Source of the DNA: Alphaproteobacteria bacterium | Lineage (GTDB): Bacteria; Pseudomonadota; Alphaproteobacteria; UBA828 | Direction: 5' to 3' | Length of the DNA: 64,000 bases | NCBI GenBank assembly: GCA_965220745.1 | Contig: CBDCQT010000011.1 | Coordinates: 64,001 to 128,000, forward strand | Shown here: piece after piece, positions 1,072-62,400 of the stretch | Numbering within the stretch: the first letter of the stretch is position 1 | Layout: each line of letters begins with the position of its first letter | Position numbers and translations under genes: made by a program | Notes under the pieces: model-generated | What the model was told of the DNA's origin: nothing | Databases searched by the model: none | The model's input: the letters and a program-made list of their open reading frames with translations, nothing else

Positions 1072-1078
1072 TCGCGCC

Positions 1079-11061: not shown

Positions 11062-11196
11062 GTCGCATTCCCCCCTGTCGTGGGCACCCCGCCGACCGGG
11101 TGCCCTGTGCACAAACGCCACGGTCCATTACACTCGGCTTGGCGCGGGAATGCCAGTTTCGCGGCCTCGGGCCTGCTCAAACACGGGAGGGCGGCG

Positions 11197-15952: not shown

Positions 15953-16090
15953 TTGTAATGTTCTGAATTACCACTATTAATCGGCACATATGATGCAATA
16001 TCCCCAGCTTAATATCTATTGACGATGCACTCCAATATCGTACACTATCCGCGCCATATAATGTTTCTACAGCCCTCGGAATAACATGCC

Positions 16091-19228: not shown

Positions 19229-19247
19229 AAGTTTGGAGTGCATAGCA

Positions 19248-19802
19248 GTGAACATCGCCAATGTATCGTTGTCTGAAGTAAAGATCATGAGCCTAAAGAA
19301 GAGCGAAGATAGTCGAGGTTTTCTGTCGGAGGTATATACCAGAAGAACGTTTGAAGCAGAAGGGGACGAAATCGAGTTCGTGCAAGACAACCATTCGTTT
19401 TCCGCCAAGAAGGGAACGGTGCGAGGATTGCACTTTCAGACGCCACCGGTTGCTCAGCATAAGCTAGTCCGTGTTGTGCGGGGATCGGTGTTCGATGTCG
19501 TGGTTGATTTGCGACGGTCGTCATTCAGCTATGGCCGGCATGTGAGTGTTGTTCTTTCGGCTGCAGCATGGAACCAAGTTTTTATTCCCATCGGCTTTGC
19601 CCACGGGTTCATGACGTTGGAAGAGGACACCGAGGTTGTCTACAAGGTAAGCGATTACTATTCGCCGGATCACGACAAGGGCCTTCTGTGGAACGATCCG
19701 GCCCTGGGTATTCAATGGCCAGTTCCCGCGAAGGAAGCCTTGCTCTCCGAAAGGGACCAGGCACACCCAAGACTAGCAGAACTGGAGAGCCCGTTCGCAT
19801 AG
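19248..19802 (+). CDS. rmlC: dTDP-4-dehydrorhamnose 3,5-epimerase
   Basis: DSRGFLSE, FVQDNHSFS, GTVRGLHFQ, GFAHGF, WNDPALGIQWP. Confidence 0.95.
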   Translation: MNIANVSLSEVKIMSLKKSEDSRGFLSEVYTRRTFEAEGDEIEFVQDNHSFSAKKGTVRGLHFQTPPVAQHKLVRVVRGSVFDVVVDLRRSSFSYGRHVSVVLSAAAWNQVFIPIGFAHGFMTLEEDTEVVYKVSDYYSPDHDKGLLWNDPALGIQWPVPAKEALLSERDQAHPRLAELESPFA

Positions 19803-19844
19803 CGCGAATGGACGCTAACCAAGTGCGGCGGAATTGGAGGAAGC

Positions 19845-20906
19845 GTGGAACGAATACTGGTCACCGGCGGGGCGGGATTCATCGGCTCCTGCATGGTGCG
19901 GCGGTTGGTGGAAGCCGGCAAGGAGGTCGTGACACTGGACCTGCTGACCTATGCGGGTCACGCCGAGACCATCGGTGCGCCGCTGGATGCGCCGAACCAC
20001 CGCTTGGAACACGCCGATATCCGCGACCGGCGCGCGGTACGTCGGATCTTTGCCGTGGCGCGGCCGCATGCGGTGATCCATCTCGCCGCTGAATCCCATG
20101 TCGACCGCTCGATCGACAGTCCCATGGACTTCGTCACCACCAACGTGCTGGGGACGGTGACACTGCTTGAGGCCGCGACCGATTACTGGAGCGGTCTGGA
20201 CGGCGCGGCGCGACAACGCTTCCGCTTTCTGCACGTGTCGACCGATGAGGTCTACGGCTCGCTGGGCGCCGAGGGCGCGTTCACCGAGACGACGCCGTAC
20301 CTGCCGAACTCGCCCTACGCGGCGAGCAAGGCGGCCTCCGACCACTTCGCGAGAGCATGGCACCGGACCTTCGGCCTGCCGGTGTTGATCAGTCACTGCT
20401 CCAACAATTACGGCCCCTATCAGTTGCCGGAGAAGTTAGTCCCCGTCGTCATCCTCGCCGCTCTGGAGGGAAGACCGATCCCCATCTACGGCGACGGTGC
20501 GAACGTTCGCGACTGGCTCTTCGTCGAAGACCATGCGCGCGCCCTGGAGCGGATTTTGGAGAATGGAACGCCCGGCGATCTCTACAACATCGGCGCGGAT
20601 GCGGAGATGTCCAACTTGGATATCGTGCGGGCGATCTGTGCTCGGTTGGACGCGCAGATGCCCAAGAGTCCCCATCGTTCTCACGCCGATCTCATCGAAT
20701 TCGTCGCGGATCGCCCAGGACACGACCGCCGCTACGCCATCGATTCCAGTCGCGTTCGCCGGGAATTGGGATGGCAGCCCACCGTCGATCTGCACGAAGG
20801 CTTGGATCTCACCGTGCGCTGGTATGTGGAAAACCGCTGGTGGTGGCAAGGGATCCGCGACGGGGGCTTCGAAGACTGCCGTCGTCAGGGATTGCGGTTC
20901 GGGTGA
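19845..20906 (+). CDS. rmlB: dTDP-glucose 4,6-dehydratase
   Basis: TGGAGFIGS, HLAAESHVDRSI, HVSTDEVYG, SPYAASKA, DRPGHDRRY. Confidence 0.96.
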   Translation: MERILVTGGAGFIGSCMVRRLVEAGKEVVTLDLLTYAGHAETIGAPLDAPNHRLEHADIRDRRAVRRIFAVARPHAVIHLAAESHVDRSIDSPMDFVTTNVLGTVTLLEAATDYWSGLDGAARQRFRFLHVSTDEVYGSLGAEGAFTETTPYLPNSPYAASKAASDHFARAWHRTFGLPVLISHCSNNYGPYQLPEKLVPVVILAALEGRPIPIYGDGANVRDWLFVEDHARALERILENGTPGDLYNIGADAEMSNLDIVRAICARLDAQMPKSPHRSHADLIEFVADRPGHDRRYAIDSSRVRRELGWQPTVDLHEGLDLTVRWYVENRWWWQGIRDGGFEDCRRQGLRFG

Positions 20907-37188: not shown

Positions 37189-38172
37189 GTGAGCCGGCGC
37201 CTCGCCGTGCGCCTCGAATCGTGGCCGCTCGCGAGTGCCTTCCGCATCTCCCGTGGCGCAAAGACCGAAGCCCACGTCGTCGTCGCCGAGATCGCCGACG
37301 GCTCACACACCGGTCGGGGCGAGGCGGTCCCCTACCCCCGATACAACGAGACGCCCGAGGGAACGCGCGCCGAGATCGAAGGCGTGCGAAACGCCGTGGA
37401 AGGCGGTCTCGCCCGCGAAGGTCTGCTGGAGACGCTGCCGCCGGGCGCTGCCCGCAATGCGCTGGACTGCGCGCTCTGGGACCTGGAGGCGAAGCAGGCG
37501 GGCCGCCCGGCCTGGGCGCTGGCGGGCCTGGAGGCGCCGCAGCCTTGCATCACCGCCGTGACGCTCAGCCTCGATACGCCGGAGAAGATGGGCGCGGCTG
37601 CCGCCCACCACGCCGCGCTCCCCCTGCTCAAGCTCAAGGTCACCGGCAAGGGCGACCTCGCGCGCATCGAGGCTGTCCGTGCGAACGCGCCGGGCGCCCG
37701 TCTGATCGTGGATGCGAACGAGGGCTGGACCGTGCCGATGCTGGAGGAGTTCCTGCCGGCTTTCGCCGACCTCGGGGTCGAGATGGTGGAGCAGCCGCTG
37801 CCGGCGGCGGACGACGGCGCGCTCGAAGGCCGGCAATTCGCGATCCCGCTCTGCGCCGATGAGAGCTGCCACACGCGGGAGGACCTGACGCGGCTCGCAG
37901 GCCGCTACCCGATGGTCAACATCAAGCTGGACAAGACCGGGGGGCTCACGGAGGCGCTGACGCTCGCGATGGAGGCGCGGGCCATGGGGTTCGATATCAT
38001 GGTGGGCAGCATGGTCGGCACCTCGCTCGGCATGGCGCCGGCGGCGCTGCTCGCGGGCTTTGCCGACTACGTCGACCTCGACGGCCCGCTGCTGCTGGCC
38101 CGCGACCGCTCGCCGGGACTGAGCTACGACGGCGCGGTCATGGCGCCACCTAAGCCTGCACTTTGGGGGTAG
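37189..38172 (+). CDS. dgcA: N-acetyl-D-Glu racemase / L-Ala-D/L-Glu epimerase (enolase superfamily)
   Basis: FRISRG, KLK, DANEGW, EQP, ADES, NIKLDKTGG, DLDGPLLL; adjacent to dgcN. Confidence 0.85.
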   Translation: MSRRLAVRLESWPLASAFRISRGAKTEAHVVVAEIADGSHTGRGEAVPYPRYNETPEGTRAEIEGVRNAVEGGLAREGLLETLPPGAARNALDCALWDLEAKQAGRPAWALAGLEAPQPCITAVTLSLDTPEKMGAAAAHHAALPLLKLKVTGKGDLARIEAVRANAPGARLIVDANEGWTVPMLEEFLPAFADLGVEMVEQPLPAADDGALEGRQFAIPLCADESCHTREDLTRLAGRYPMVNIKLDKTGGLTEALTLAMEARAMGFDIMVGSMVGTSLGMAPAALLAGFADYVDLDGPLLLARDRSPGLSYDGAVMAPPKPALWG

Positions 38173-38184
38173 CTCGCCTAAAAT

Positions 38185-38211
38185 TCTTTACCGATTGATC
38201 TATAGTAAAGA
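38185..38211. promoter_or_regulatory. Inverted-repeat operator candidate upstream of AbrB-VapC
   Basis: TCTTTAC (38185-38191) / GTAAAGA (38205-38211) in an AT-rich promoter region. Confidence 0.5.
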
Positions 38212-38259
38212 TTGAAATATGGTTTGTCTGAATTGGCCGCGCAAAAATAGGACGACCTC

Positions 38260-38487
38260 ATGCCGCGCGTGAGCGCGAAGCGTCAGATTACGCTCCCCAT
38301 CGATCAGTGCAGAGAAGTAGGCATCGGGCCGGGGGACGAGTACCGCAGCTTCGTTGCCGATGGCCGCATCACCATCGTGCGGAAGACCGCTGGCGCGGCT
38401 AAGGGTTTCTTGCGCCATGTAGCCGGCGATCCCGCCGTCAGCGACGAGGAATCCCTGCAGGACGCGCTTGACGAGCCAAAATCTTGA
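38260..38487 (+). CDS. AbrB/MazE/SpoVT-type antitoxin
   Basis: VSAKRQITLP..VGIGPGD; overlaps the PIN gene. Confidence 0.85.
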   Translation: MPRVSAKRQITLPIDQCREVGIGPGDEYRSFVADGRITIVRKTAGAAKGFLRHVAGDPAVSDEESLQDALDEPKS

Positions 38488-38918
38488 TCGCTGTCGACAC
38501 CAATGTCTTGCTCCGCTATCTGCTGCACGACGATGAGGCCCAGGCGGCGCGGGCGAACGCTGTTTTCGATGCTGCCGAAACCGTTCTGATCACGGACGTC
38601 GTACTTGTGGAAGCCGTCTGGACGCTCGCCGGCCGCAAGTATCGGCTGGCCAAGGCCGAACTGGCGGCGGTCCTCGAACGGCTGTTCAGCGAGCCGAATA
38701 TCCGTTTCGAGGACGATCAGACCGTATGGCGCGCCTTGCAGGCATACCGCAACACCGCACCGGCGGACGAGGCCGGGTCGGGGAAGGGCGCCGGCTTCGC
38801 CGATGCGTTGATCGTGTTCAAGGCGCTGCGCACCGCATCGGACTCCGCCGAGACATTGAACGGCGTCTACACCTTCGATGCGGCCATGGGGCAGCTACCG
38901 CACACTGTATCGCTTTAG
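38484..38918 (+). CDS. vapC: PIN-domain (VapC) toxin
   Basis: AVDTNVLLRYL, VLVEAVWTL, FADALI, YTFD. Confidence 0.88.
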   Translation: MIAVDTNVLLRYLLHDDEAQAARANAVFDAAETVLITDVVLVEAVWTLAGRKYRLAKAELAAVLERLFSEPNIRFEDDQTVWRALQAYRNTAPADEAGSGKGAGFADALIVFKALRTASDSAETLNGVYTFDAAMGQLPHTVSL

Positions 38919-39028
38919 CCCCCAACTCTTATCGGGGCTGTAGCCTTGTTTCCACGCACCCGATCTGAAATTCTGGCGGGGCAATTGGAAAGGCCCGGCC
39001 AGCACCGGGCCGGCACAGTGAGGGGGCG

Positions 39029-39682
39029 ATGGGCCGCCTGTTGGACCTAGGGGAGCGGGTGGAGCTCGTCTCCATGGACCCGCACTTCCATGACATCAGC
39101 ATCTCCCTCTACCGCGAGACCGGAGAAGGCGGCGCCTCGGGCTATCTCGCGCACAGCTACAGCGGGAAGGAAGGCACCACCGAGCGGTTGGCGTTCGTGA
39201 TGCGGGCGATGGCTGTGATGGGCGGCATGGTGCCGGCGCCGGGCCAGCCGGGGCGCCTCGCATTCGCGTGCGGCGAAGAACACCGGGCGGCGGTGAAGCG
39301 GCTCTTCCTCGAAGCCTGCAAGAAGGCGCCAGGTTCCGAGGTCGCGGCGCTGCCCATGAGCATCTACGACAAGAAGAACGACTTCACCATCGACGCCACT
39401 GCCACAGGCAGCGGGGGCTACCGGCTTGCCGTCGCAGGCGGTGAGGGCGATGACAAAGTGGCGCGGCGCGTGGACGGCGTGACCAGGGGGCTGATCAAGC
39501 TCGCCGAGATGGAGCCCGGTGCCGAGCTGGGCGAGGCCCGCTTCGCCTGCGGCACGACCCATGACGAGCTGGTGGGCCTCCTGCTCGGCCGGGCGCTCAA
39601 CGTCCGCGCCGCCATGCGCGAGGCGGAGGCTGCGGCGGCGCGGGGCGTCCTCGCCGCGCCGAGCGCACAACAACAGACCTGA
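39029..39682 (+). CDS. Hypothetical protein with duplicated FACGxxH motif, first gene of the corrinoid operon
   Basis: RBS GAGGGG; host-like codon usage; 18 bp before the MtaA-like gene. Confidence 0.75.
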   Translation: MGRLLDLGERVELVSMDPHFHDISISLYRETGEGGASGYLAHSYSGKEGTTERLAFVMRAMAVMGGMVPAPGQPGRLAFACGEEHRAAVKRLFLEACKKAPGSEVAALPMSIYDKKNDFTIDATATGSGGYRLAVAGGEGDDKVARRVDGVTRGLIKLAEMEPGAELGEARFACGTTHDELVGLLLGRALNVRAAMREAEAAAARGVLAAPSAQQQT

Positions 39683-39700
39683 GGGTCGGGAGCGAGAGCG

Positions 39701-40744
39701 ATGACGGCAGTACCCTCGATGACCAGCCGCGAGCGGGTGCTCGCGGCGCTCCGGCGTGAGCCGGTGGATCGCACGCCCGTGTGCAACCCCACCTCGGTCG
39801 CGACGGTGGAGCTGATGGACTTGGTGGACGCCAACTTTCCGTTCGCGAACCGCGACCCGGAGCTGATGGCGCGGCTCGCCGCCACCAGCTACACCGAGCT
39901 CGGCTTCGACAGCATCATGCCGGTCTTCTCGATCATCCAGGAATCGTCGGCGCTCGGCTGCAAGATGCAGTGGGAGCAGAAGGACAATTGGCCGACCGTG
40001 CGCATGCGCGAGCCGATCTGGGAGGACGTCGACGACATCCGCATACCCAACGACTTCCTCCTGCACCCCGACATGGCGTGCGTAATCGAGGGGATCCGCA
40101 TGCTGCGCCGCGAGTTCGGCGACGAGGTCGCGATCATCGGCAAGACCATGGGGCCGTGGACCCTCGGCTATCACTGCTTCGGGGTGGAGCCCTTCCTGCT
40201 CATGTCCCTCGACGATCCGGGCAAGACCAAGCTCGCGCTCGACCGTATGAAGGAGGCGACGATCGTCTTCGGGCTGGCACAGATCGAAGCAGGCGCGGAT
40301 GCGCTCACCGTCCCCGATCACGCCACCGGCGATCTGGTGAGCGCCGACTACTACAAGCGCTTCCTCAGGGACCTTCACATCGAGTTCGTGGAGCGCCTTC
40401 CGGTGCCGCTTATCCTCCACATCTGCGGGCGCACCGTGGACCGCATGGGCTATATCGCAGAGACCGGGATCGCCGCCTTCCACTTCGATTCCAAGAACGC
40501 ACCGTCCGAGTCCATGGCGGCGATGGACGACAGGGTGTCGCTGGTCGGCAACATCAACAACCCCGAGACGCTGTTCGCCAAGGGGCCGGAGGACGTGCGC
40601 AAGGAGGTCTACGCCAATCTCGACGCCGGCGTGCAGGGGGTCGGGCCGGAATGCGCCATCCCGCTCCAGACCTCGGTCGAGAACCTGCGCGAGATTCCGC
40701 TGGCGGTGCGCGACTGGCATGCCGAGCATGGCAGCCCGCTCTAA
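39701..40744 (+). CDS. MtaA/CmuA-family methylcobamide methyltransferase (URO-D fold)
   Basis: MTSRERVLAAL..VDRTPV, GPWTL, QIEAGAD, Zn motif LHICG plus PECAI, LVGNIN. Confidence 0.85.
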   Translation: MTAVPSMTSRERVLAALRREPVDRTPVCNPTSVATVELMDLVDANFPFANRDPELMARLAATSYTELGFDSIMPVFSIIQESSALGCKMQWEQKDNWPTVRMREPIWEDVDDIRIPNDFLLHPDMACVIEGIRMLRREFGDEVAIIGKTMGPWTLGYHCFGVEPFLLMSLDDPGKTKLALDRMKEATIVFGLAQIEAGADALTVPDHATGDLVSADYYKRFLRDLHIEFVERLPVPLILHICGRTVDRMGYIAETGIAAFHFDSKNAPSESMAAMDDRVSLVGNINNPETLFAKGPEDVRKEVYANLDAGVQGVGPECAIPLQTSVENLREIPLAVRDWHAEHGSPL

Positions 40745-40784
40745 GGCCTTGTGACACCCTGTCCGTTTCACCACTGAGTCCCCG

Positions 40785-41534
40785 ATGGCCGAGCTTGCCG
40801 ACATCGCCAACGCGGTGATCCGCGACGAGATCGAGGAGTTTCTCGAGCGCCCGGACGAGATCGAGCGCAACGTCGCGCTGTTCGCGCGCGTGCGGCCCGA
40901 GATGCAGGACATCGCTGCCGCGTTGATCGAGGGCGACAATCACACGGTGGACGCGCTCACCGCCAAGGCCCTGGAGGAGGGCACCGAGGCGCTGGAGATC
41001 ATGGACGACGGTTTGATCGCTGGCATGGGCATCGTCGGCATCAAGTTCCGCGAGAATTTCATCTTTGTGCCCGAGGTGCTGGCCTGCGCGCGGGCCATGA
41101 AGGCCGGCATGGCCCATATCGAGCCGATCCTGTCGGCCTCGGGCGTCGAGCCCATCGGCACCGTGATCATGGGCACGGTCAAGGGCGACCTCCACGACAT
41201 TGGCAAGAACCTCTGCATCATGATGCTTTCCGGCGCGGGCTTCGACGTGGTCGACCTTGGCGTGGACACGTCGGAAGACGAGTTTATTGCCGCGCTCGAG
41301 GAACACGGGGCGCCGATTATGGGCATGTCCGCGCTGCTGACGACGACGATGCCGAACATGGGCAAGACCATCGAGGCGCTGATCGACGCCGACATCCGCG
41401 ACGACGTGATGGTAATGGTGGGGGGCGCGCCGGTGACCCAGGAGTTCGCCGACGACATGGGCGCCGACGGCTATGGCAAGGACGCGCTCTCCTGCGTGGC
41501 GCTCGCCAAGAAGCTGATGGAAGAGCGCGGTTAG
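40785..41534 (+). CDS. Corrinoid (B12-binding) protein
   Basis: Cap domain GLIAGMGIVG..FVPEVL; B12 motif GTVKGDLHDIGKN, DLGVD, SALLTTTM, VGGAPVT. Confidence 0.93.
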   Translation: MAELADIANAVIRDEIEEFLERPDEIERNVALFARVRPEMQDIAAALIEGDNHTVDALTAKALEEGTEALEIMDDGLIAGMGIVGIKFRENFIFVPEVLACARAMKAGMAHIEPILSASGVEPIGTVIMGTVKGDLHDIGKNLCIMMLSGAGFDVVDLGVDTSEDEFIAALEEHGAPIMGMSALLTTTMPNMGKTIEALIDADIRDDVMVMVGGAPVTQEFADDMGADGYGKDALSCVALAKKLMEERG

Positions 41535-41542
41535 GCCGGCCG

Positions 41543-43537
41543 TTGCCGAAGATCAGCCAAGAGGACTATCAGCAGCGACTGGATCGGCTCACCGAGATCT
41601 TCGCGGATATCGTGAGCCATGCCGACGAGCAGGCGACGCACCGCTGCCCCTACCGCGACGCCCGCGACCGCTGCACGGCGGCGTTCTCGTGCGGCAACCA
41701 GATTCCCGCCGTCGAGAAGGGCGCGCCTGCAACCTGCGGCCACGACGGCACCTTCGACTACAGCCTAGCGTGGGAAACGGATCCGGCCACCCGCGAACGC
41801 GCGAAGACGAAGCTCAGCGCGATCAAGCGAGCCGCCGCCGCGCGGCGGGAGGGTGAGACGCTACCGACGGGGCCCGGCACCGTCTCCCACGACGGCAAGA
41901 CTCAGCCGCTCGCCATAGGCATGACGCTCTTCGACTGCGCCGACGAGCTTGCGGTCGAGGTGCCGACCTCATGCCAGCGCAATGGCCGCTGCCACGAATG
42001 CGTGGTGGAGGTGAGCGCGGGCGAGGCCGCGCTCTGCGCCCGCACCGAGGCGGAGAGCTTCCTGCGCGCGCCTTACCGCCTCGCCTGCCAGGCGATGGTC
42101 GAGCGCGACGATATCGACGTAGCCTTCGCGCCGCTCCGCCGCCGACCGCGCATCCTGGTGCGTGCCCATTCCGACACGGCCGGCGCGCCCGAGACCATCG
42201 ATCCTCTCGTCGCCCGGCGGGGCGACGAGGTGCTCTACGACGGCGAGGTGGTGGACCGCTACCGGGGACACGTGCTCGGGCTCGCGGTCGATCTCGGCAC
42301 CACCACTGTGGTGCTTGACTTCGTCGACCTAGAGACCGGAAAGAGCGTGCACAGCGCCGCCTTCGAGAACCCGCAGGCCTTCGGCGGCAGCGACGTGATG
42401 CACCGCATCTCCTACGACCGCGACGACAAGGCAGGCGAGCTGCAGAAGGCCGCAGCGTCGGCCATCAACCGCGTTATCGTCGATGGCTGCGCTAGGCTCG
42501 GCACCAACCGCCAGGCGATCTACGAGATCGTGGTCGCCGCCAACTCCACCATGCGCGACATCCTGTTCAAGCTGGACGTCCAGGGGATCGGCCAGAAGCC
42601 CTATAAGTCATCCATAGAGCACGCCTTCCTGGCCGGCGAGCGCGCGAATACGGCGCTCAGCGCCCGCGCGCTTCGGTTGGGCCTGCGCGCCAACCGCGCG
42701 GCCCGCGTCTACGGCCTGCCGCTGATCGCGAGCCATGTGGGGGGCGATTCTGCAGCCGCTCTCGTGGCGCTGGAAGAAGGCTTCGCCGACGCCGATACCG
42801 CGATGTTGGTGGACATGGGCACCAACACCGAGGTCGTGCTCAAGCACCGGGGCCGGATGCTCGCCGCCTCGTGCCCGGCGGGGCCGGCGTTCGAGGGCGG
42901 GCTGGTGCGCTACGGAATGCCGGCCTGCGACGGTGCGATCGAGGCGGTCCGCCTCGGCGAAGACGGCGAGGCCGCCTACGAGACCATCGGCGGCAAGAAG
43001 CCGGTGGGGCTCTGTGGCTCTGGCCTGATCGATTTGCTGGCGGAACTTCGCCGGACCGACGTGCTCACCGCCAAGGGCGTCTTCACCGCGGACCGCAAGC
43101 AGAGGGAGATGACCGTGGTGCCCGAGCAGGGGATCACCTTCTCCAAGGAGGACGCCAGCAATCTCGGTCAGGCCAAGGCCGCCAACTACTGCGGTCAGTA
43201 CATCGTCATGCGCGCGCTGGGTGTCGATCCCGCCGATGTCGAGAGCCTCTATCTCGCGGGCGGCTTCGCCAACTACGTGAACGTGCGCAATGCCCAGTCC
43301 ATCGGCCTGCTGGCGCCGGTGCCGGAGGAACGCGTCGTCAAGGCCGGCAACGCGGCGGCGCGCGGCGCCCGGGCGATCCTGCTCTCGGCCACCCGGCGGC
43401 GCGCGCTAGAGCGCGAGGTCCAGGCCATCGAGCATATCGAGCTGGAAACCACGCCCGACTTCTTCGACCTCTTCGTGGACGGCTGCCAGTTCAAGCCGAT
43501 GCCAACACACCTCGTGCCGGAAGGAACCGCCGCATGA
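41543..43537 (+). CDS. Corrinoid reductive activator (RamA/RACo type; [2Fe-2S] plus ASKHA ATPase)
   Basis: CQRNGRCHEC..RLACQ; DLGTTT, NPQAFGGSDVMHRI, VGGD, DMGTNTE, GPAFEG, GLCGSG, YLAGGF. Confidence 0.9.
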   Translation: MPKISQEDYQQRLDRLTEIFADIVSHADEQATHRCPYRDARDRCTAAFSCGNQIPAVEKGAPATCGHDGTFDYSLAWETDPATRERAKTKLSAIKRAAAARREGETLPTGPGTVSHDGKTQPLAIGMTLFDCADELAVEVPTSCQRNGRCHECVVEVSAGEAALCARTEAESFLRAPYRLACQAMVERDDIDVAFAPLRRRPRILVRAHSDTAGAPETIDPLVARRGDEVLYDGEVVDRYRGHVLGLAVDLGTTTVVLDFVDLETGKSVHSAAFENPQAFGGSDVMHRISYDRDDKAGELQKAAASAINRVIVDGCARLGTNRQAIYEIVVAANSTMRDILFKLDVQGIGQKPYKSSIEHAFLAGERANTALSARALRLGLRANRAARVYGLPLIASHVGGDSAAALVALEEGFADADTAMLVDMGTNTEVVLKHRGRMLAASCPAGPAFEGGLVRYGMPACDGAIEAVRLGEDGEAAYETIGGKKPVGLCGSGLIDLLAELRRTDVLTAKGVFTADRKQREMTVVPEQGITFSKEDASNLGQAKAANYCGQYIVMRALGVDPADVESLYLAGGFANYVNVRNAQSIGLLAPVPEERVVKAGNAAARGARAILLSATRRRALEREVQAIEHIELETTPDFFDLFVDGCQFKPMPTHLVPEGTAA

Positions 43538-44562
43538 CCACCCCGCCGCTCATCGTCATCGGCGAGAACATCCATTGCACCCGCGTCGCGCTCCGCAAGG
43601 GCAAGCGCATTGCCGAACGCGACGGTGCCGAAGTGATCCTTTACGAGAGCGCAGAGGGCGAAGAACGCGCGCTACCGGTCACCGCGGAGGCGAAGCGGAC
43701 CAAGGACTACGAAGAGGGGCGGGTCAAGCACGTTCAGGTCGCGATCGAGACCGCGATGGAGACGGCCGCGGGCGATCCGGCCGAGGGCCTGCGCTATATC
43801 GAGGCGCAGGTCCGCCATCAGGAGCGCGCGGGCGCGGCTTTTCTGGACCTCAACGTGGACGAGATCGCGCCCAAGCTCGCCGTGCAGACCGGCGCCATGG
43901 CCTGGCTCGCCGCCACGGTGCAAGGGCTCACGGACCTCCCGCTTTCCGTCGACTCCTCAAGCGTGGACGTGATTCGCGCCGGGCTCGAGGCGATCGCGCC
44001 GGCAAAGGTACGCCCGATGCTCAACTCCGCCTCCCTGGAGCGGCTGGACGCGCTCGACCTCGCCCGCGAGCACGACTGCCGCGTGGTGGTGACCGCCGCC
44101 GGCGAGAAGGGGATGCCTGACGGCGCGGACGAGCGTGTGGCGAACGCCTCCCGCATGGTGGAGGCAGCCCTGGAGCGGGGCTTCGCCGTCGGCGATCTCT
44201 ACATCGACCCGCTAGTCTTCCCGATCTCCGTCGACTCCCGCTTCGGCAACCACTGCTTCGACGCGATCCGCGCCCTGCGCGCGCGCTTCGGCGACGAGGT
44301 CCACATCACCGGCGGCATGAGCAACGTTTCGTTCGGGCTGCCGGCCCGCAAGATCCTCAACGACATGTTCGTCCTGCTCGCAATGGAGGCCGGCGCCGAC
44401 GGCGGAATCATGGACCCGGTGGCGAGCCCGCCCGAGGCGATCCTCGCCATCGACCGCACGGACCCGAACTACAAGCTCGCCGAGGACGTGTTGATGGGGC
44501 GGGACGAGCACTGCATGGAATATATCCGCGCCTGGCGAAAGAGCAGGCGCAAGGCCAAGTGA
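43534..44562 (+). CDS. Pterin-binding methyltetrahydrofolate:corrinoid methyltransferase (MetH folate domain / AcsE-like)
   Basis: VIGENIH, LDLNVD, PLSVDSS, MLNSAS, IDPLVFPI, GGMSNVSFGLPAR; ATGA overlap. Confidence 0.85.
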   Translation: MTTPPLIVIGENIHCTRVALRKGKRIAERDGAEVILYESAEGEERALPVTAEAKRTKDYEEGRVKHVQVAIETAMETAAGDPAEGLRYIEAQVRHQERAGAAFLDLNVDEIAPKLAVQTGAMAWLAATVQGLTDLPLSVDSSSVDVIRAGLEAIAPAKVRPMLNSASLERLDALDLAREHDCRVVVTAAGEKGMPDGADERVANASRMVEAALERGFAVGDLYIDPLVFPISVDSRFGNHCFDAIRALRARFGDEVHITGGMSNVSFGLPARKILNDMFVLLAMEAGADGGIMDPVASPPEAILAIDRTDPNYKLAEDVLMGRDEHCMEYIRAWRKSRRKAK

Positions 44563-44587
44563 AGAGCCGAGTGAAGAAGAGACCCCT

Positions 44588-44989
44588 ATGACCGAGACCG
44601 AACGGCCGCCGCAAATCGAGCCCGCGCTCCGCACGCTGGCCATGCCCGCCGACGCCAACCCCAACGGCGACATCTTCGGCGGCTGGGTGCTGGCGCAGAT
44701 GGACCTGGCCGGCGGCGTCGTGGCGGCGCGGCGCGCGGGCGGGCGCATGGTCACGGTGGCGGTGGAGGCCATGCGCTTCCACGCGCCGATCGCCGTCGGC
44801 GACCTCGTGACCTGCTACGCCCGGGTGACGAAGACCGGAACGACCTCAATCACCGTCGACATCGAGACCTGGGCACGCCGGCGGCGCGGCGCCGTGGAGG
44901 TGAGGGTGACCGAGGGCACCTTCATCTATGTCGCCATCGACGACGACGGCCGTCCCCGCCCTCTCCCCGACCAGGCCCCAGAGGGCTGA
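44588..44989 (+). CDS. Acyl-CoA thioesterase (YciA-like hotdog fold)
   Basis: AMPADANPNGDIFGGWVLAQMDLAG, YVAIDDDGRPR. Confidence 0.92.
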   Translation: MTETERPPQIEPALRTLAMPADANPNGDIFGGWVLAQMDLAGGVVAARRAGGRMVTVAVEAMRFHAPIAVGDLVTCYARVTKTGTTSITVDIETWARRRRGAVEVRVTEGTFIYVAIDDDGRPRPLPDQAPEG

Positions 44990-44992
44990 CGG

Positions 44993-46522
44993 CTAGGAGC
45001 GGGCGCTGACGGTGGGGTCGTTGGCTGGATCAAGGCCGCGGATGATGGTGCAGGGCATCGGCGCGGCGCGGAGCACCTTGCACGCCCGGCTGGCGTCGTT
45101 CTTGTAGAGCCCGAGAAAGCGCGCCCGATAGAGCGTGCCGCGTCCATCTGCGAGAGGCACCAGGGTCGCCGTCGCATCGCTGAGGAGCGGGGCGCGCACC
45201 GATGCTCGGCGCATGGCGATCTCCGCCGCGGTGATTGACTCGTAGGCACCCACTTGGATGGCCCAGGGGCCGCCTGCCGCCGGTGCTGCTGCGAACGTCT
45301 TTGCCGGAGACGGCGCTGGGGTCGCGACCGCCGGCTGCGTGGCCTCAAGCGCGGCGACCTCGGGCGTCGCGGCACCGGGCTTCAACGGCGGGGGCTGGGG
45401 AGGCGGCGGGCCCGTAGCGACCTTGATCGGTGTCTCCGGTGCGCGCGGGGCCGGCGGCGGCTCCTCGGCGATCTTAATTGGCTCGGGCGGCGGCGCCGCG
45501 TCACCTTCGACCAGCTCGGGCGGCTCGGCGGCGGCAACCATGATGGCCGCTGGCTTGAAGCGCGGCGCCGGCGCGGCGAGGCCGGAGCCTCCCGGTGGGC
45601 GCGGAATGCCCGCGTAACGCACGCGGCCGCGCTTGGCGTCGTTCTCGGCGATCCGCGTGAAGCCGAGGTCGAGGAGGTTGGACATGTGGGCATTGCGCGA
45701 GCGCGCCGTCTTACCACCGAAGACCACGGCGATGACCCGCCGGCCGTCCCGCTCCGCCGAGGCCACGAGGTTGAAGCCCGAGGCGCGAATATAGCCGGTC
45801 TTGATGCCGTCCATGCCGCGATAGCGGCCGAGCAGCCGGTTCGGCGAGCGATGCTCGCGCCCGCGATAGCGGAAGCGCTTGTCGTCGAAATAGTGGTAGC
45901 GGTCCGGGAAGTCGCGCATGAGCGCCTGGGCGAGGCGGGCCATGTCTCGTGCCGTGCTGCGCTGCTTCCGGTTCGGCAGGCCCGACGCATTGCGGAAGGT
46001 GGTTCGGGACATGCCGAGCGCCTTGGCCTTCCTGGTCATCTTCCTGCCGAACTCGACCTCCGTGCCGCCCAGCGCCTCGGCGACCACCACGGCGATATCG
46101 TTCGCCGACTTGACGACCAGCGCCTTGATCGCGTCCTCGACACGGATCGTCGAGCCGGCCCGCAGCCCGAGCTTGGAGGGCGACTGCCCCGCCGCCCGCT
46201 TCGAGACCTTCAGCTTCGAATCGAGGCTGAGCTTCCCGTTGTCGACCGCCTCGAAGAGCAGATAGAGGGTCATCATTTTAGTCAGCGAGGCTGGGTACCG
46301 CCTTATGTCGGCGTTGCGTGAGCGCAGAACCTCGCCGGTCTCAGCGTCGATGACGATGGAGGCGTAGCGCGCGTGCGCTTCTTCGGCGGCAAAGACCTGC
46401 GATATGACGAGAATGCAAAGCGCGAGTGCGAGACTGAGGACGATCGAGCCCGGACGCAAAATTCTTCTTCTTCGCCGTGTTCCCACGCCCGCCCCGCCGC
46501 CGACAGCGAATCGACTGAACAT
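44993..46522 (-). CDS. D-alanyl-D-alanine carboxypeptidase (S11) with Pro-rich linker and SPOR domain
   Basis: PASLTK (SxxK), SAN (SxN), KTG; C-terminal WAIQVGAY..YRARF; start uncertain. Confidence 0.9.
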   Translation of the reverse strand: MFSRFAVGGGAGVGTRRRRRILRPGSIVLSLALALCILVISQVFAAEEAHARYASIVIDAETGEVLRSRNADIRRYPASLTKMMTLYLLFEAVDNGKLSLDSKLKVSKRAAGQSPSKLGLRAGSTIRVEDAIKALVVKSANDIAVVVAEALGGTEVEFGRKMTRKAKALGMSRTTFRNASGLPNRKQRSTARDMARLAQALMRDFPDRYHYFDDKRFRYRGREHRSPNRLLGRYRGMDGIKTGYIRASGFNLVASAERDGRRVIAVVFGGKTARSRNAHMSNLLDLGFTRIAENDAKRGRVRYAGIPRPPGGSGLAAPAPRFKPAAIMVAAAEPPELVEGDAAPPPEPIKIAEEPPPAPRAPETPIKVATGPPPPQPPPLKPGAATPEVAALEATQPAVATPAPSPAKTFAAAPAAGGPWAIQVGAYESITAAEIAMRRASVRAPLLSDATATLVPLADGRGTLYRARFLGLYKNDASRACKVLRAAPMPCTIIRGLDPANDPTVSARS

Positions 46523-56405: not shown

Positions 56406-58709
56406 TCAGGCGCCGCCGTTGGCCCCGCCGTTGTCGAGCGCCTCCAGCAGGCGCGGCGGCGACATCGGCAGGTCGGTCATGCGCACGCCGGTCGCGTTCT
56501 CGATCGCGTTGGCCACCGCCGCCATCGGCGGCACGATCGGGGTCTCGCCGACGCCGCGCACCCCATAGGGGTGGTTCGGGTTCGGCACCTCGACGATGAC
56601 CGCGTCGATCATCGGCAGGTCCGAGGCCACCGGCATGCGGTAATCGAGGAAGCCCGGATTTTCGAGCCGGCCGTCCTTGTCGTAGATGTACTCCTCGTTG
56701 AGCGCCCAGCCGATGCCCTGGGCGGCGCCGCCCTGAATCTGGCCCTCGACGTAGCTCGGATGGACCGCCTTGCCTGCGTCCTGCACCGCGGTATAGCGCA
56801 GTACGGTGACGCGTCCGGTCTCACGGTCGACCTCCACGTCGCACACGTGGGTGCCGAAGCCGGGGCCGGCGCCTTGCGCGTTGATGGAGGCGGTCGCCGC
56901 GATCGGGCCGCCGGTCTTGCCGGCCTGGGCCGCGATCTCAGCCATGCTCATAGGCTCGAAATCACCGGCATTGCTGCCCGAGGGCTTGGCGTAGCCGTCC
57001 TCCCACTCGACCGCCTCGACCGGGATGTCCCAGATTTTAGCGGCACGCTCGCGCAACTGCTCGACGACCTTGCCCGCCGCATCGATTGCCGCCATGCCGG
57101 TGGCGAAGGTGACGCGGCTGCCACCGGTGAGGAAGGTATAGCCGATGGTGTCGGTATCGGCGACCAGTGGGCGCACCCTTTCCGGCGGAATGCCGAGCGC
57201 TTCGGCCGCCTGAAGCTGAATGGAGGCGCGCGAGCCGCCGATGTCGGGGTTGCCCTCGATCACCGTCGCCGTGCCGTCCTCATTGACGTTGATGGTGGCG
57301 CAGGATTCGCCGCCGATGTTGAACCAGAAGCCGGTGGCGATGCCGCGACCCTGGTTGGGGCCGAGCGGGATGCTGTAGTGCTCGCTGCTGCGCGCGGCCT
57401 CCAGGGTCTCGATGCAGCCGACAGGGCCGAACTTGGGCCCGTAGAGCGCGCGAGTGCCTTCCCTGGCCGCGTTCATGAGGCGGAACTCCGCCGGGTCGAT
57501 GTCGAGCTTCTTCGCGATCTCGTCGACCACTCCCTCGGCGGCGAACTCGGAGATCGGCGCCCCCGGCGCGCGGTAGGCGGCCACCTTCGGCCGGTTCACC
57601 ACCACGTCGTAGCCCTCGACCTCGGCGTTCTCGATATCGTAGGGCGCGAAGACGCACATGCAGCCAGGCTGGATCGGCGAGCCGGGGAAGGCGCCCGCCT
57701 GATAGGCGAGCCACGCCTTGGCGGCGGTGATCTTGCCGTCCTTAGTGGCGCCCATCTTGATCGTCATGGCGCCGCCCGAGGTCGGACCGCTGGCGCGGAA
57801 CACCTCCTCGCGCGACATCACGATCTTGACCGGCCGGCCGGCAAGCTGCGACAGCCTGAGTGCGACTGGCTCCAGATAGACCACGGTCTTGCCGCCGAAG
57901 CCGCCACCGATCTCCGACGGCGTCACACGAATGTTGCCGATGTCGATGCCGAGCAGGTTGGCGCAGTAGGCGCGGACGGTGAACTGCCCCTGGGTGCAGC
58001 ACCAGACCTCGCACTGGCCGTCCTCGCCGGCGCTGGCGACCACCGCGTGGGGCTCGATGTAGCCCTGATGCACCGGCTTGGTGGTGAAGGTGCGTTCCAC
58101 GACGATGTCAGCCTCGGCGAATCCCTTATCTAGATCGCCGCTCTGGAAGTGCACCTTCTTGAAGACGTTCGACGGCGTCTCCGGCGTGGGCTCGACGCCC
58201 TGAGTGAACATGTCGTCATGCAGCACGGGCGCGTCCGGCTTCATCGCGTCGCGCACGTCGATCACGTGCGGCAGCACCTCGTAGTCCACCTCGATCAGGT
58301 CCAGCGCCTGCTTGGCGATGGCCGCCGTGGTCGCCGCCACCGCCGCAACGGCGTGGCCGTCGTAGAGCGCCTTCTCCCGCGCCATCACGTTCTGCGACAT
58401 GTCGCGGTAGTTGACCTGCACCTCGCCCGCCGGCACCCACTGGGAGGGCACCTCGGGCATCTCGTCGCGGGTGACGACGGCCTTCACGCCCGGCAGCGCG
58501 CGGGCCTTGGACGCATCGATGGAGCGGATGCGCGCGTGCGCGTGGGGGCTGCGCAGCACCCGGCCCACCAGCATGCCCGGCAGCGAGAGGTCCGCGCCGA
58601 ACTTGGCCCGGCCGGTCACCTTGTCCACGCCATCGGGGCGCCACGGCCGCGTGCCGACGTACTTGAGCGAGCCGTTGCCGTTACCGATCTCCTGCTTGGC
58701 GGTTGCCAT
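56406..58709 (-). CDS. Xanthine dehydrogenase family molybdopterin-binding large subunit
   Basis: KVTGRAKF, LRSPHAHARI, GGGFGGK, AYRAPG, EGQIQGG, RGVGE. Confidence 0.93.
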   Translation of the reverse strand: MATAKQEIGNGNGSLKYVGTRPWRPDGVDKVTGRAKFGADLSLPGMLVGRVLRSPHAHARIRSIDASKARALPGVKAVVTRDEMPEVPSQWVPAGEVQVNYRDMSQNVMAREKALYDGHAVAAVAATTAAIAKQALDLIEVDYEVLPHVIDVRDAMKPDAPVLHDDMFTQGVEPTPETPSNVFKKVHFQSGDLDKGFAEADIVVERTFTTKPVHQGYIEPHAVVASAGEDGQCEVWCCTQGQFTVRAYCANLLGIDIGNIRVTPSEIGGGFGGKTVVYLEPVALRLSQLAGRPVKIVMSREEVFRASGPTSGGAMTIKMGATKDGKITAAKAWLAYQAGAFPGSPIQPGCMCVFAPYDIENAEVEGYDVVVNRPKVAAYRAPGAPISEFAAEGVVDEIAKKLDIDPAEFRLMNAAREGTRALYGPKFGPVGCIETLEAARSSEHYSIPLGPNQGRGIATGFWFNIGGESCATINVNEDGTATVIEGNPDIGGSRASIQLQAAEALGIPPERVRPLVADTDTIGYTFLTGGSRVTFATGMAAIDAAGKVVEQLRERAAKIWDIPVEAVEWEDGYAKPSGSNAGDFEPMSMAEIAAQAGKTGGPIAATASINAQGAGPGFGTHVCDVEVDRETGRVTVLRYTAVQDAGKAVHPSYVEGQIQGGAAQGIGWALNEEYIYDKDGRLENPGFLDYRMPVASDLPMIDAVIVEVPNPNHPYGVRGVGETPIVPPMAAVANAIENATGVRMTDLPMSPPRLLEALDNGGANGGA

Positions 58710-58712
58710 GAG

Positions 58713-59189
58713 CTATTCTCCCCTCAGCTCCGCCGCCGTCGTCATCACGGCGCGGATGATCTTGTCGTAGCCGGTACAGCGGCAGAGATTGCCCGCCAGC
58801 CAGTAGCGGGCTTCCGTCTCGGTCGGGTCCGGGTTCTCCTCGAGCAGTGCCTTGGCAGCGACCAGGAAGCCCGGCGTGCAGATGCCGCATTGCAGCGCGG
58901 CGTCCTCCAGAAACTGGCGCTGCAGCGGATGCAGCGTGTCGCCATCGGCCATGCCCTCGATGGTGCCGATCTCGCGCCCCTCGGCCTCGGTGCCGAGCAT
59001 CAGGCACGCGCAGACCAGGGTGCCATCCACGGTCACGCTGCAGGCGCCGCAGTCGCCGGTGGCGCAGCCTTCCTTGGTGCCGGTGAGCTCCAACTCGTCG
59101 CGCAGCACGTCAAGCAGGGTCTGCTCGCCAGAGCAGAGGAACTCCGTCGGCTCGCCGTTGACGCTGGTGGTTACGTGATACTTGGCCAT
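58713..59189 (-). CDS. [2Fe-2S] small subunit (CoxS/XdhC type)
   Basis: GTKEGCATGDCGACSV, QCGICTPG, GNLCRCTGY. Confidence 0.94.
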   Translation of the reverse strand: MAKYHVTTSVNGEPTEFLCSGEQTLLDVLRDELELTGTKEGCATGDCGACSVTVDGTLVCACLMLGTEAEGREIGTIEGMADGDTLHPLQRQFLEDAALQCGICTPGFLVAAKALLEENPDPTETEARYWLAGNLCRCTGYDKIIRAVMTTAAELRGE

Positions 59190-60061
59190 CAACCGTTGCT
59201 CCTCGCTCGCTCCAGGGCGATGAGCGCGGCGCGTCTCGCCAGCACTCCCGCCACCTTGACCCGGTATTCGATGGTCCCGCGCTTGTCGTCGATGGGATTG
59301 CAGGCGGCGCTCGCGGCGGCCGCAAGGTTGGCAAGCGCGTCGTCGTCGACCTTCGTGCCGATCAGCGCCTTGGCGCCGTCTTCGACCAGCAGCGGCGTGG
59401 GCGCGACCGCACCGAGGCCGAGCCGCGCGTGGGTGCAGACGCCTGCCTCGTCGAGCGTGAGCGCGACGCCGGCGCCGACCACGGCGATGTCCATCTCGGT
59501 GCGCGGAATGAAGCGCAGGTAGGCATCGCCCGAACGCGGCGGCGGCTTCGGCATGACGAAGGAAACCACGATTTCGCCCGGACCGAGGCAGAGTTGGCCG
59601 GGCCCCGTGATCACGTCCTCCACCAGTACCGAGCGGGCGCCGTTCGGGCCCGCGACCTCGCAGACTGCACCGGCCGCGATCAGCGCCGGCACGCTATCGG
59701 CAGCGGGCGAGCCGTTGCAGAGGTTGCCGCCAAGCGAGGCGCGCCCTTGAATTTGGGTCGAGCCGATCAGCTCCAACGCCTCCACCACGCCCGGCCACGC
59801 GGCCTTCACGGTCTCGTTCTTGCCGAGAGTCGCGCCGGAGACCGCAGCGCCGACGCGGATGTCATCGCCGTTCACCGTCACGTCCATGAGCGCCGGGATA
59901 CGCTTCAAATCGACGATGAGGCCGGGCCGGACGAAATCGGTGCGCAGCTGAACCAGGAGGTCGGTGCCACCGGCGAGCGGCATGGCCTCGCCGTCGGCAT
60001 CGGCGAGGAGCCGGACGGCATCCTCGACCGTCTCGGGCGCCTCAAATCGTAGACTGCTCAT
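59189..60061 (-). CDS. FAD-binding medium subunit (CoxM type)
   Basis: LAGGTDL, ASLGGNLCNGSPAADS, PIDDKRGTIEYR. Confidence 0.93.
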   Translation of the reverse strand: MSSLRFEAPETVEDAVRLLADADGEAMPLAGGTDLLVQLRTDFVRPGLIVDLKRIPALMDVTVNGDDIRVGAAVSGATLGKNETVKAAWPGVVEALELIGSTQIQGRASLGGNLCNGSPAADSVPALIAAGAVCEVAGPNGARSVLVEDVITGPGQLCLGPGEIVVSFVMPKPPPRSGDAYLRFIPRTEMDIAVVGAGVALTLDEAGVCTHARLGLGAVAPTPLLVEDGAKALIGTKVDDDALANLAAAASAACNPIDDKRGTIEYRVKVAGVLARRAALIALERARSNG

Positions 60062-60255
60062 GTGCGGGGGGTTCCTCCTGTTGCCGCGGCACCTAGTGGG
60101 CGCCCTCTTTTACCCGAAAAGGCGCGGCGGTTCACAGGGGCAAAATGGCGGCCATGGCCGGCCTGCGCCTTGCGGCCGGCGGCCCCCGCCGTCTACCCTT
60201 GCCCGAAGGACGCATGACCAAGGACGGGCACCTGGGAGAGTGGGAGCCCAGCCGC

Positions 60256-62400
<2,145 letters not shown>

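Follow-up and report, generated by a model that had tools for sequence, protein, structure and literature searches.

A five-gene operon in a 64-kb stretch of alphaproteobacterial DNA (hereafter the window, to which the operon coordinates refer) was found to belong to a gene cluster that is widespread in uncultured aerobes. The constant part of this cluster is formed by the genes g1, g2 and g3 and by a small four-cysteine module (c9), and the gene for the acceptor methyltransferase varies between loci. In the window, the operon spans 39029-44562 on the + strand, according to the open reading frame (ORF) list and the sequence, and encodes a protein without known family (g1), a zinc methyltransferase of the MtaA/CmuA family (g2), a corrinoid protein (g3), a RACo-type activase with c9 fused to its start (g4) and a pterin-binding methyltransferase (g5). 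The reading that we favour, with a confidence somewhat above even, is that these proteins form a set of methyltransferase I (MT I), corrinoid protein, methyltransferase II (MT II) and activating enzyme, which would carry a donor's methyl group to cobalt and then to tetrahydrofolate (THF) or homocysteine in an aerobic host. Corrinoid methyltransferase systems are textbook chemistry of methanogens and acetogens, and their role in aerobes is only emerging from systems such as CmuAB and the MtgBCDE hub of Ruegeria. The general type of corrinoid methyl transfer is therefore already known, and what is new here is the two components without known family (g1 and c9) and the wiring to either acceptor. 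The cluster stands out by its occurrence in at least eight phyla, by a catalytic pair that is about 75-78% identical across phyla and by its folate or homocysteine wiring. No published description of the cluster, g1 or c9 was found in the literature searched, most subscription journals lying outside its scope.

The genes are separated by gaps of 18 bp (g1/g2), 40 bp (g2/g3) and 8 bp (g3/g4). The TTG start of g4, read from the sequence, lies 8 bp past the stop codon of g3, and g4 and g5 meet in an ATGA overlap. The GC content of third codon positions was 0.88-0.92 for all operon genes except the over-extended g5 ORF, and the GC content by codon position supported the reading frames. Five co-oriented genes with this spacing and these domains had been described in an original prediction made from the sequence alone, and they were confirmed by the ORFs, the sequence and the Pfam and NCBIfam profile scans, in which domain calls were scored against curated cut-offs. 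The domain matches also supported the route proposed there, that is, methyl transfer from a substrate to a corrinoid and on to THF by an MtaA/CmuA-family enzyme, a corrinoid protein, RACo and a pterin methyltransferase.

Database homologues of g2 number thousands, and the best 120 were all 79-94% identical; the few named ones were attributed to Alphaproteobacteria, Acidobacteria, Bryobacteraceae and Poribacteria. A genome scan gave 69 related loci, all in metagenome-assembled genomes (MAGs) or single-cell genomes from at least eight phyla, and these included Alphaproteobacteria, Bryobacterales, Vicinamibacterales, Acidimicrobiia, Gemmatimonas, Poribacteria, Latescibacterota, Planctomycetes and Chloroflexota. 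The record titles point to sea water, sponges, lakes and soils as the habitats. In L001-L008, the eight full-length loci nearest to the window (g2 90-99% identical), the titles name Alphaproteobacteria, in agreement with the apparent alphaproteobacterium of the original prediction, and no cultured carrier of the cluster was present among the 69 loci or in the plasmid collection. Because the same gene order recurred in 69 loci of many phyla, the arrangement is not a product of chance, and the system is not peculiar to one alphaproteobacterium.

The synteny was evaluated by tblastn of the window proteins against all loci, by unbiased ORF clustering and by a final count, which covered 57 loci, those where the sequence extended 1 kb or more upstream and 5 kb or more downstream of g2. 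Within these 57 loci, g1 was present in 54, g3 in 56, c9 in 49, the RACo core in 41, g5 in 33 and a homocysteine S-methyltransferase gene (PF02574) in 11. The invariant core consisted of g1, g2 and g3 with c9, and c9 belonged more to this core than to the activase because it was kept in eight loci without the RACo core. As for the acceptor, 32 loci had g5 alone, 10 had PF02574 alone, one (L023) had both and 14 had neither. The synteny survey proposed with the original prediction thus yielded a conserved core and a varying acceptor module. The median pairwise identity was 78% for g2 (65 ORFs), 75% for g3, 60% for g4, 57% for g5 and 47% for g1. Hence, g2 and g3 were conserved far above their operon partners, which points to exceptional constraint and not to recent transfer alone. 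The switch of the acceptor module offers a natural experiment on how such systems are built.

The assignment of g2 was derived from the NCBIfam scores, the match to a solved structure and a direct comparison with CmuA. The protein matched the URO-D family (PF01208) at 2e-64 over positions 1-345 of the 346 in the profile, and it passed the mtaA_cmuA model TIGR01463 with 246.7 bits against a cut-off of 235.4. It stayed below the equivalog cut-offs for MtaA (NF040654, 221.8 against 400) and MtbA (NF041608, 188.1 against 600). MtaA of Methanosarcina (PDB 4AY7) was matched over the full length at 181 bits (E 3.2e-52), whereas the uroporphyrinogen decarboxylase chains in the PDB matched at E 2.7e-16 or weaker; at E <= 0.001, the PDB matches were MtaA and 18 others, all of them uroporphyrinogen decarboxylases. 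A true uroporphyrinogen decarboxylase (HemE), which had been named among the findings that would refute the original prediction, was rejected, as the hemE model gave 64.4 bits against a cut-off of 302.95. The H-x-C...C motif noticed earlier as a zinc site corresponds to H240, C242 and C318. These residues were invariant in 39 of 39 aligned orthologues, in an alignment with 134 invariant columns including these predicted zinc ligands, and they aligned with the H-x-C and C of MtaA 4AY7 and of CmuA. According to these comparisons, g2 forms a branch of its own within the family, on the side of MtaA, and is no split orthologue of CmuA; it is proposed to be a substrate:cob(I)amide methyltransferase, i.e., the MT I.

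The earlier idea of a split CmuA-like system stood only in part. Identity between g2 and CmuA of Methylorubrum extorquens CM4 (plasmid pCMU01) was 25%, at 42.4 bits against the 181 bits for MtaA, so that a close kinship with CmuA did not hold. On the other hand, three database proteins (P0271, P0272 and P0273; 619-634 residues; 78-80% identical to g2) fuse g2 and g3, although all three lie on short contigs, where an assembly or read-through artefact is possible. The domains of P0271 were confirmed as UroD, B12 cap and B12-binding. Thus, the fused architecture of CmuA may occur within the g2 family too. In the plasmid collection, the best match to g2 was 26-27% identical and all matches were hemE or other UroD-family genes; pCMU01 was not among the 25 plasmid records that matched g2 at E <= 1e-5.

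The first gene of the operon had been treated as a bystander, and the synteny counts showed it to be a co-conserved core partner that is, moreover, modelled over the zinc site of g2. In nearly all loci, g1 was adjacent to and co-oriented with g2. No Pfam or NCBIfam family and no usable ESM Atlas match was found for g1, and a tentative link to DUF1638, the accessory of split MetH, was rejected as Pfam gave no match. The AlphaFold2 (AF2) model of g1 was confident, with a predicted local distance difference test score (pLDDT) of 90.8 and a predicted template modelling score (pTM) of 0.87; a Foldseek search of this model against the PDB gave no matches at E <= 0.001, the best being 0.14. A module of about 90 residues occurs twice in tandem in the protein, the halves being aligned by hhalign at 97.4% and E 9.6e-12. 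Each half carries F-x-C-G-x-x-H, with C81/H85 and C174/H178 each kept in at least 90% of 37 sequences. In the same 37 sequences, the last ten residues form a conserved tail, R-G-x-L-x-A-P-S-A-Q. In this tail, S212 was replaced by G in 2 of the 37 (L058 and L061) and by T in the divergent tail of L067; the tail is therefore not strictly invariant, which speaks against it being a methylated substrate. The profile of the 37 sequences matched 315 representative clusters, nearly all of them stand-alone proteins of about 200-220 residues or fragments. The longer matches P0175, P0151, P0251 and P0121 had no extra Pfam domain, and no informative fusion was found among them. One entry, P0199, joins a g1 fragment to the start of a UroD domain and is probably a read-through of neighbouring genes.

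The interaction of g1 with g2 was explored by complex modelling. Three runs scored 0.56, 0.84 and 0.87 (median 0.84), whereas the best of three controls scored 0.00. In the calibration, which is approximate for models built with our own alignments, 116 of 157 solved complexes attained the 0.84 mark, as did 2 of 215 mismatched pairs. The runs shared at least 38% of their contacts, and the partner pLDDT was at least 84. The modelled interface comprised H207, C242-G243 and C318-A319 of g2 and residues 203-214 of g1, that is, its tail. These models support a binding of g1 to the zinc face of g2. By analogy with MtaA, the corrinoid is expected to dock on the same face, and g1 may act as a lid or gate, determine specificity as a subunit, or inhibit the enzyme. 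Whatever the substrate is, g1 provides a testable new partner of a well-studied enzyme fold.

The other components were assigned from their domains and nearest solved relatives. g3 contains the B12-binding_2 (PF02607) and B12-binding (PF02310) domains, i.e., a B12 cap and a Rossmann part. Its best PDB match was 1Y80, a cobalamin-binding protein of Moorella (6.3e-60), it was 32% identical to the corrinoid domain of CmuA, and it is predicted to be a stand-alone corrinoid methyl carrier. In g4, Fer2 (118-186), Raco_middle (245-410) and RACo_C_ter (419-656) were all above the Pfam cut-offs, and the best PDB match was RACo itself (3ZYY, 1.4e-66); the scores for AcsV (281.8 against 800) and RamA (105.8 against 500) were below the NCBIfam cut-offs. 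With its [2Fe-2S] ferredoxin, middle and ASKHA domains, g4 is a putative ATP-dependent reductive activase of the RACo type that would convert Co(II) to Co(I). For g5, Pterin_bind (PF00809) was matched at 3.5e-21 with 76.4 bits (cut-off 25.5), and PRK07535 was matched at 204 bits, below its cut-off of 259. Its best PDB matches were 4O0Q, 4O1E and 4O1F (2.3e-30), followed by MeTr structures. The entry 4O0Q is titled 'dihydropteroate synthase', and we take it to be the methyl-THF-forming MT II of a Desulfitobacterium hafniense O-demethylase. Hence, g5 is a likely pterin-binding methylcorrinoid:tetrahydrofolate methyltransferase, the candidate MT II. Both g3 and g5 also matched MetH models in NCBIfam.

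The c9 module at the start of g4 had been overlooked. At other loci, it was mostly a separate ORF of about 110 residues between g3 and the RACo gene, and the copy in the window was 52% identical over 86 residues to the free-standing ORF of L031. An alignment of 20 sequences revealed four invariant cysteines, C35, C44, C50 and C65, in the pattern C-x8-C-x5-C-x14-C. No Pfam match above the cut-off was obtained for c9, and its AF2 model was of moderate quality (pLDDT 75.8, pTM 0.36). The module is a probable metal- or Fe-S-binding adaptor. PF13769 was considered for c9 and rejected, as no similarity was detected to the PF13769-bearing proteins of L071 and L067.

In the proposed mechanism, g2 together with its partner g1 would take a methyl group from a small donor X-CH3 onto Co(I) of g3, and g5 would move it from CH3-Co(III) to THF. 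In other lineages, a homocysteine S-methyltransferase would move the methyl group to homocysteine and yield methionine directly. Oxidised Co(II) would be rescued by g4 (RACo and c9) with ATP and an electron. The original prediction had left the direction of transfer undecided, and the synteny now favours a flow from donor to cobalt and then to THF or homocysteine. At the loci with PF02574, this gene was located directly after g4 or between g2 and g3, and its products resembled the homocysteine modules of MetH, of YitJ and of the alphaproteobacterial 'BHMT' type. In MetH chemistry, the homocysteine module accepts the methyl group only from methyl-cobalt; we therefore infer that, in the ten clusters with PF02574 alone, g2 is the sole candidate for loading the cobalt. 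Furthermore, g1, g3 and c9 stay with g2 while the acceptor gene varies, which argues for a donor-side role of g2. This combination of an invariant g2-g3 pair and a swappable acceptor is what a donor-specific MT I and its cognate carrier would show. A parallel pattern is the MtgB/MtgC/MtgD/MtgE hub, which was shown by genetics in the aerobe Ruegeria pomeroyi (PMC12478193), and another is the split MetH of Phaeobacter with its RamA-like activase (PMC5764234). A folate outlet would also fit a gene with methylenetetrahydrofolate reductase (MTHFR) and DUF5981 domains (MetF/MetV-like) between the RACo gene and g5 in L040 (13674-15221), and an MTHFR-like gene with a family III CoA-transferase directly upstream of g1 in L016 (6917-9197).

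The nature of the donor was considered from the zinc site and from linked genes. His-Cys-Cys is described as the zinc sphere of the S-methyltransferases of the UroD superfamily, and the O-demethylases replace the cysteines (PMC10418091, a preprint). The invariant His-Cys-Cys of g2 thus speaks for a donor of the methyl-sulfur or methyl-selenium type and against methoxy-aromatics, and methyl halides are kept among the candidates since CmuA retains H-x-C...C. If g2 acts on the donor side, a methyl-sulfur compound (methanethiol, dimethyl sulfide (DMS), methylmercaptopropionate or a methylthio-hydroxy/oxo acid) is the most likely donor, with roughly an even chance, and a methyl halide comes second at a distinctly lower probability. 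In either case, an enzyme could be named for a flux that has none, such as the aerobic degradation of chloromethane without cmu genes (PMC9080209).

One orthologue group of D-2-hydroxyacid dehydrogenases was found in or beside the cluster at 10 loci of Alphaproteobacteria, Vicinamibacterales and Acidimicrobiia, with 49-67% identity between lineages; in Acidimicrobiia, the gene lies between g3 and an inverted g1. This linked dehydrogenase may indicate that a 2-hydroxy or 2-oxo acid is formed as a co-product, or that assimilation is of the serine-cycle type. A second D-2-hydroxyacid dehydrogenase group was observed in L020, L021 and L068.

A more speculative extension, to which we give a low probability, is that g1-g2-g3-c9 is a self-contained 'methyl-harvesting' module of uncultured aerobes from sea, sponge, lake and soil, which would turn an abundant volatile or sulfur methyl donor into methionine or folate methyl groups. 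The g1 tail reaching the zinc would gate the active site and permit Co(I) chemistry in oxygen-exposed cells. If this were true, the module would be the missing enzyme of cmu-independent aerobic methyl-halide consumption or of aerobic methyl-sulfur demethylation, with methanethiol, DMS, methylmercaptopropionate and CH3Cl/CH3Br as candidate donors, and g1 would be a new kind of subunit.

Several points weigh against the favoured flow from donor to folate or homocysteine. Direction and substrate are both drawn from gene context. MtaA, the closest characterised relative of g2, acts on the acceptor side, from methylcobamide to a thiol. No acceptor gene was present within 10 kb at 14 of the 57 loci; acceptor modules can thus be encoded at a distance, and at the loci with PF02574 alone the methyl group could come from an unseen pterin module. 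The modelled g1 covers the zinc face where the corrinoid would dock, so that g1 could function as inhibitor, as lid or even as substrate protein instead of helping in catalysis. No g1 was found nearby in L044, L050 and L051. As for the donor, the zinc triad does not distinguish thiol from halide substrates, as CmuA keeps it too, and a gaseous substrate would leave the linked dehydrogenase unexplained.

Some of these points feed the strongest alternative, in which the flow is reversed: methyl-THF would load the corrinoid via g5, g2 would methylate a thiol or selenol as a biosynthetic or detoxifying S-methylase, and g1 would present or gate the acceptor. The kinship of g2 with MtaA, which methylates coenzyme M, and the modelled position of the g1 tail at the zinc site would suit such a role. 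In addition, His-Cys-Cys zinc sites activate thiols (PMC10418091), and pterin methyltransferases of this kind are reported to be bidirectional in Ruegeria (PMC12478193). However, 10 of the 57 loci have the homocysteine module as the sole other methyltransferase; if no pterin module is encoded outside them, these clusters would lack a donor and possess two acceptors. Moreover, no pathway for a bacterial thiol cofactor and no product-handling gene was conserved beside the cluster. The reverse flow is therefore regarded as unlikely, yet as the most serious competitor of the donor-side reading.

Somewhat less probable again is an aerobic, cmu-independent methyl-halide dehalogenase, in which g1 would close the pocket of g2, CH3Cl, CH3Br or CH3I would reach Co(I) on g3 and g5 would make methyl-THF. 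The architecture corresponds to the combined function of CmuA and CmuB, fused g2-g3 forms exist, and g3 shares 32% identity with the CmuA corrinoid domain. Enzymes of the UroD superfamily became haloalkane methyltransferases more than once (PMC13222342), soils are reported to contain CH3Cl sinks that lack cmuA (PMC9080209), and the habitats of the loci would agree with such a function. By contrast, g2 is only 25% identical to CmuA, and its invariant zinc triad differs from CdmB, described as zinc-free (PMC13222342). The linked 2-hydroxyacid dehydrogenase has no role for a halide leaving group, and no folD/purU set lies beside the cluster, unlike in pCMU01.

A housekeeping split methionine synthase, with g2 in place of the homocysteine-binding module and a flow from methyl-THF to cobalt to homocysteine, appears very improbable. 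Aerobic Alphaproteobacteria are known to possess a split MetH that works with a RamA/RACo-like activase (PMC5764234; PMC12478193). The matches of g3 and g5 to MetH models would agree with it, and tblastn at E <= 1e-3 detected no PF02574-like homocysteine S-methyltransferase sequence in the 64-kb window, in line with the earlier statement that the operon has no homocysteine-binding domain. However, the split methionine synthase described there relies on a PF02574 module and not on an MtaA-like one and has no UroD-family part (PMC5764234; PMC12478193), so that the cluster is not this already described system, as had been considered. The 11 loci with PF02574 alongside g2, one of them with g5 too, indicate that g2 is no substitute for that module, and the extreme conservation of g2 and the dedicated g1 are foreign to the described system.

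An Odm/Mtv/Mto-type O-demethylase that acts on methoxylated aromatics would follow the same four-component logic, and the best solved relative of g5, 4O0Q, presumably comes from such a system. This assignment can be set aside as highly unlikely, since g2 keeps the His-Cys-Cys that is lost in O-demethylases (PMC10418091), all 18 PDB matches of g2 beyond MtaA at E <= 0.001 were uroporphyrinogen decarboxylases, and no aromatic catabolic genes were conserved beside the cluster.

The donor-side reading was further compared with known systems. The methanogen coenzyme M methyltransferases of the UroD superfamily (MtaA/MtbA/MtsA) have the same zinc ligands as g2, with full-length homology in the case of MtaA, and likewise work with a separate corrinoid protein and an ATP-dependent activase. 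The operon differs from them in its aerobic bacterial host, its folate-linked partner methyltransferase, the obligate-looking subunit g1 and, probably, a donor-side role of g2. In CmuA/CmuB of M. extorquens CM4 (pCMU01), MtaA-like and corrinoid domains also feed THF in an aerobic alphaproteobacterium. However, CmuA holds both domains in one polypeptide, whereas g2 and g3 are separate genes 40 bp apart, and the cmuA neighbourhood lacks g1, c9 and RACo and contains folD/purU, which are absent beside the operon.

The Mtg hub, which includes a glycine betaine methyltransferase, and the split MetH of Ruegeria and Phaeobacter (PMC12478193, PMC5764234) likewise belong to aerobic bacteria and have stand-alone corrinoid, pterin, PF02574 and RamA/RACo-like modules. 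In the Mtg hub as in the cluster, one corrinoid carrier is served by interchangeable methyltransferase modules (PMC12478193). Compared by description, the Mtg donor module is MtgB (MttB family, pfam06253), whereas the cluster uses the MtaA-family g2 with g1; the Mtg accessory is DUF1638 in contrast to c9, and the Mtg genes are scattered whereas those of the cluster are grouped. As in split MetH (Price 2018; MtgCDE of Mausz 2025), the corrinoid (g3), pterin (g5) and RACo-like (g4) modules are separate, and PF02574 is absent from the window. Pfam scans of another 46 ORFs of the window (27 + 19) brought up no MttB/MtgB or MtaB family, no search having been aimed at them.

Methyl-sulfur or methyl-selenium chemistry has likewise been proposed for the type 1 mlp clusters (Kountz and Balskus preprint, PMC10418091). 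According to that preprint, these clusters have two or three Mlps (at least Mlp2 and Mlp3) and no THF methyltransferase and occur in obligate anaerobes only. In the present cluster, a single MtaA-like gene is combined with an acceptor for folate or homocysteine and with g1 and c9, and the hosts are aerobic; it thus falls outside the definition of the type 1 mlp clusters. The Cdm (CdmBCA) and Odm/Mtv/Mto systems of anaerobes (PMC13222342) also combine an MT I of the UroD superfamily with a corrinoid protein, a pterin MT II and an activase. CdmB is placed there as zinc-free and close to the O-demethylases, whereas g2 falls into the MtaA branch, its zinc triad being invariant and its hosts aerobic.

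Several loci departed from the common arrangement. In L044 and L050, a GlcD-like oxidase with flavin adenine dinucleotide (FAD) lies upstream of g2 and a PhyH dioxygenase gene follows g3. In L010 (Poribacteria, 10001-12579), g1 and g2 are present and no g3, c9, g4 or g5 was found within 10 kb; a 319-residue ORF without family follows g2 and is succeeded by Rieske and cytochrome b genes. The most distant relative of g2, 51% identical, is located in L069 (7310-8314, a Chloroflexia MAG) and has two in-frame stop codons. The g3, g4 and g5 matches of this locus are fragmented, and it is possibly a decaying copy. In L049 (an Acidimicrobiia MAG without g1 nearby), a second, divergent corrinoid set (1001-5063, - strand) lies 5 kb upstream of the main cluster, with identities of 48% for the g3-like, 32% for the g5-like and 29% for the g4-like protein. 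An analogous cluster was observed in L071 (6796-12983), plasmid 1 of Gemmatirosa kalamazoonensis, a cultured aerobic soil bacterium, and comprises a UroD-family gene, a corrinoid protein with a C-terminal PF13769-like domain, RACo, a 403-residue protein of unknown function and PF02574. It was rejected as a member of the cluster and is an analogue instead, as its UroD-family gene lacks H-x-C and matched g2 at 28.9 bits over 144 residues. This analogue suggests a wider spread among aerobes of systems in which a corrinoid passes the donor's methyl group on to homocysteine.

The coordinates of the operon genes, the neighbouring thioesterase gene and six of the linked dehydrogenase genes are given in Table 1.

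Table 1. Positions of the operon genes and linked features (window or locus coordinates)
Feature	Sequence	Coordinates	Strand	Description
g1	window	39029-39682	+	217 aa; without known family
g2	window	39701-40744	+	347 aa; MtaA/CmuA-family zinc methyltransferase
g3	window	40785-41534	+	249 aa; corrinoid protein
c9 module	window	41543-41887	+	N-terminal ~115 aa of g4; four cysteines
g4	window	41543-43537	+	664 aa; TTG start; c9 fused to RACo-type activase
g5	window	43534-44562	+	342 aa; pterin-binding methyltransferase
YciA-like acyl-CoA thioesterase	window	44588-44989	+	4HBT 2.2e-20; PRK10694 150.7 bits (cut-off 162)
D-2-hydroxyacid dehydrogenase	L024	8330-9274		
D-2-hydroxyacid dehydrogenase	L026	8260-9213		
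D-2-hydroxyacid dehydrogenase	L043	6712-7713		
D-2-hydroxyacid dehydrogenase	L052	11689-12783		
D-2-hydroxyacid dehydrogenase	L054	11800-12783		
D-2-hydroxyacid dehydrogenase	L056	14306-15253		

The thioesterase gene is co-oriented with the operon and lies 25 bp downstream of g5. It directly follows g5 in L001-L004 and L064 (g2 93-99% identical) and is about 3.6 kb away in L006, and it is probably a neighbour rather than a component of the system. Just upstream of the operon, a small ORF (38260-38487) overlaps a PIN/VapC gene (38484-38918), and the two are likely a toxin-antitoxin pair, common only to L001-L003. Since this pair and the thioesterase gene are conserved in the closest relatives only, both probably stand outside the system. 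A second PIN-domain gene is located at 5557-5970. No Rfam family was matched in the whole window at gathering thresholds or in 38100-39200 at E <= 1, and no cobalamin riboswitch was thus seen; no tRNA genes were found in the window. In a promoter and terminator scan of 38100-45200, the number of sites was not above that of shuffled sequence.

Besides the operon, the Pfam scans revealed genes in the window for a Rieske oxygenase, an HpaB-type hydroxylase, a luciferase-like monooxygenase and a CoxLMS-like enzyme. The CoxL/M/S-like molybdenum hydroxylase set (56406-60061, - strand) adjoins a B12-dependent methylmalonyl-CoA mutase gene (60145-62400), and the host thus possesses one or more further B12 enzymes. 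The oxygen-dependent enzymes and the B12 mutase fit an aerobic, B12-using host. Furthermore, a stretch of low GC content (16001-20000, 0.54-0.56 compared with about 0.67) holds a gene for a group-1 glycosyltransferase of 1045 residues. It is followed by dTDP-rhamnose genes (epimerase, dehydratase, reductase and nucleotidyltransferase) up to about 22800, and the region from 16001 to about 22800 is a probable surface-polysaccharide island.

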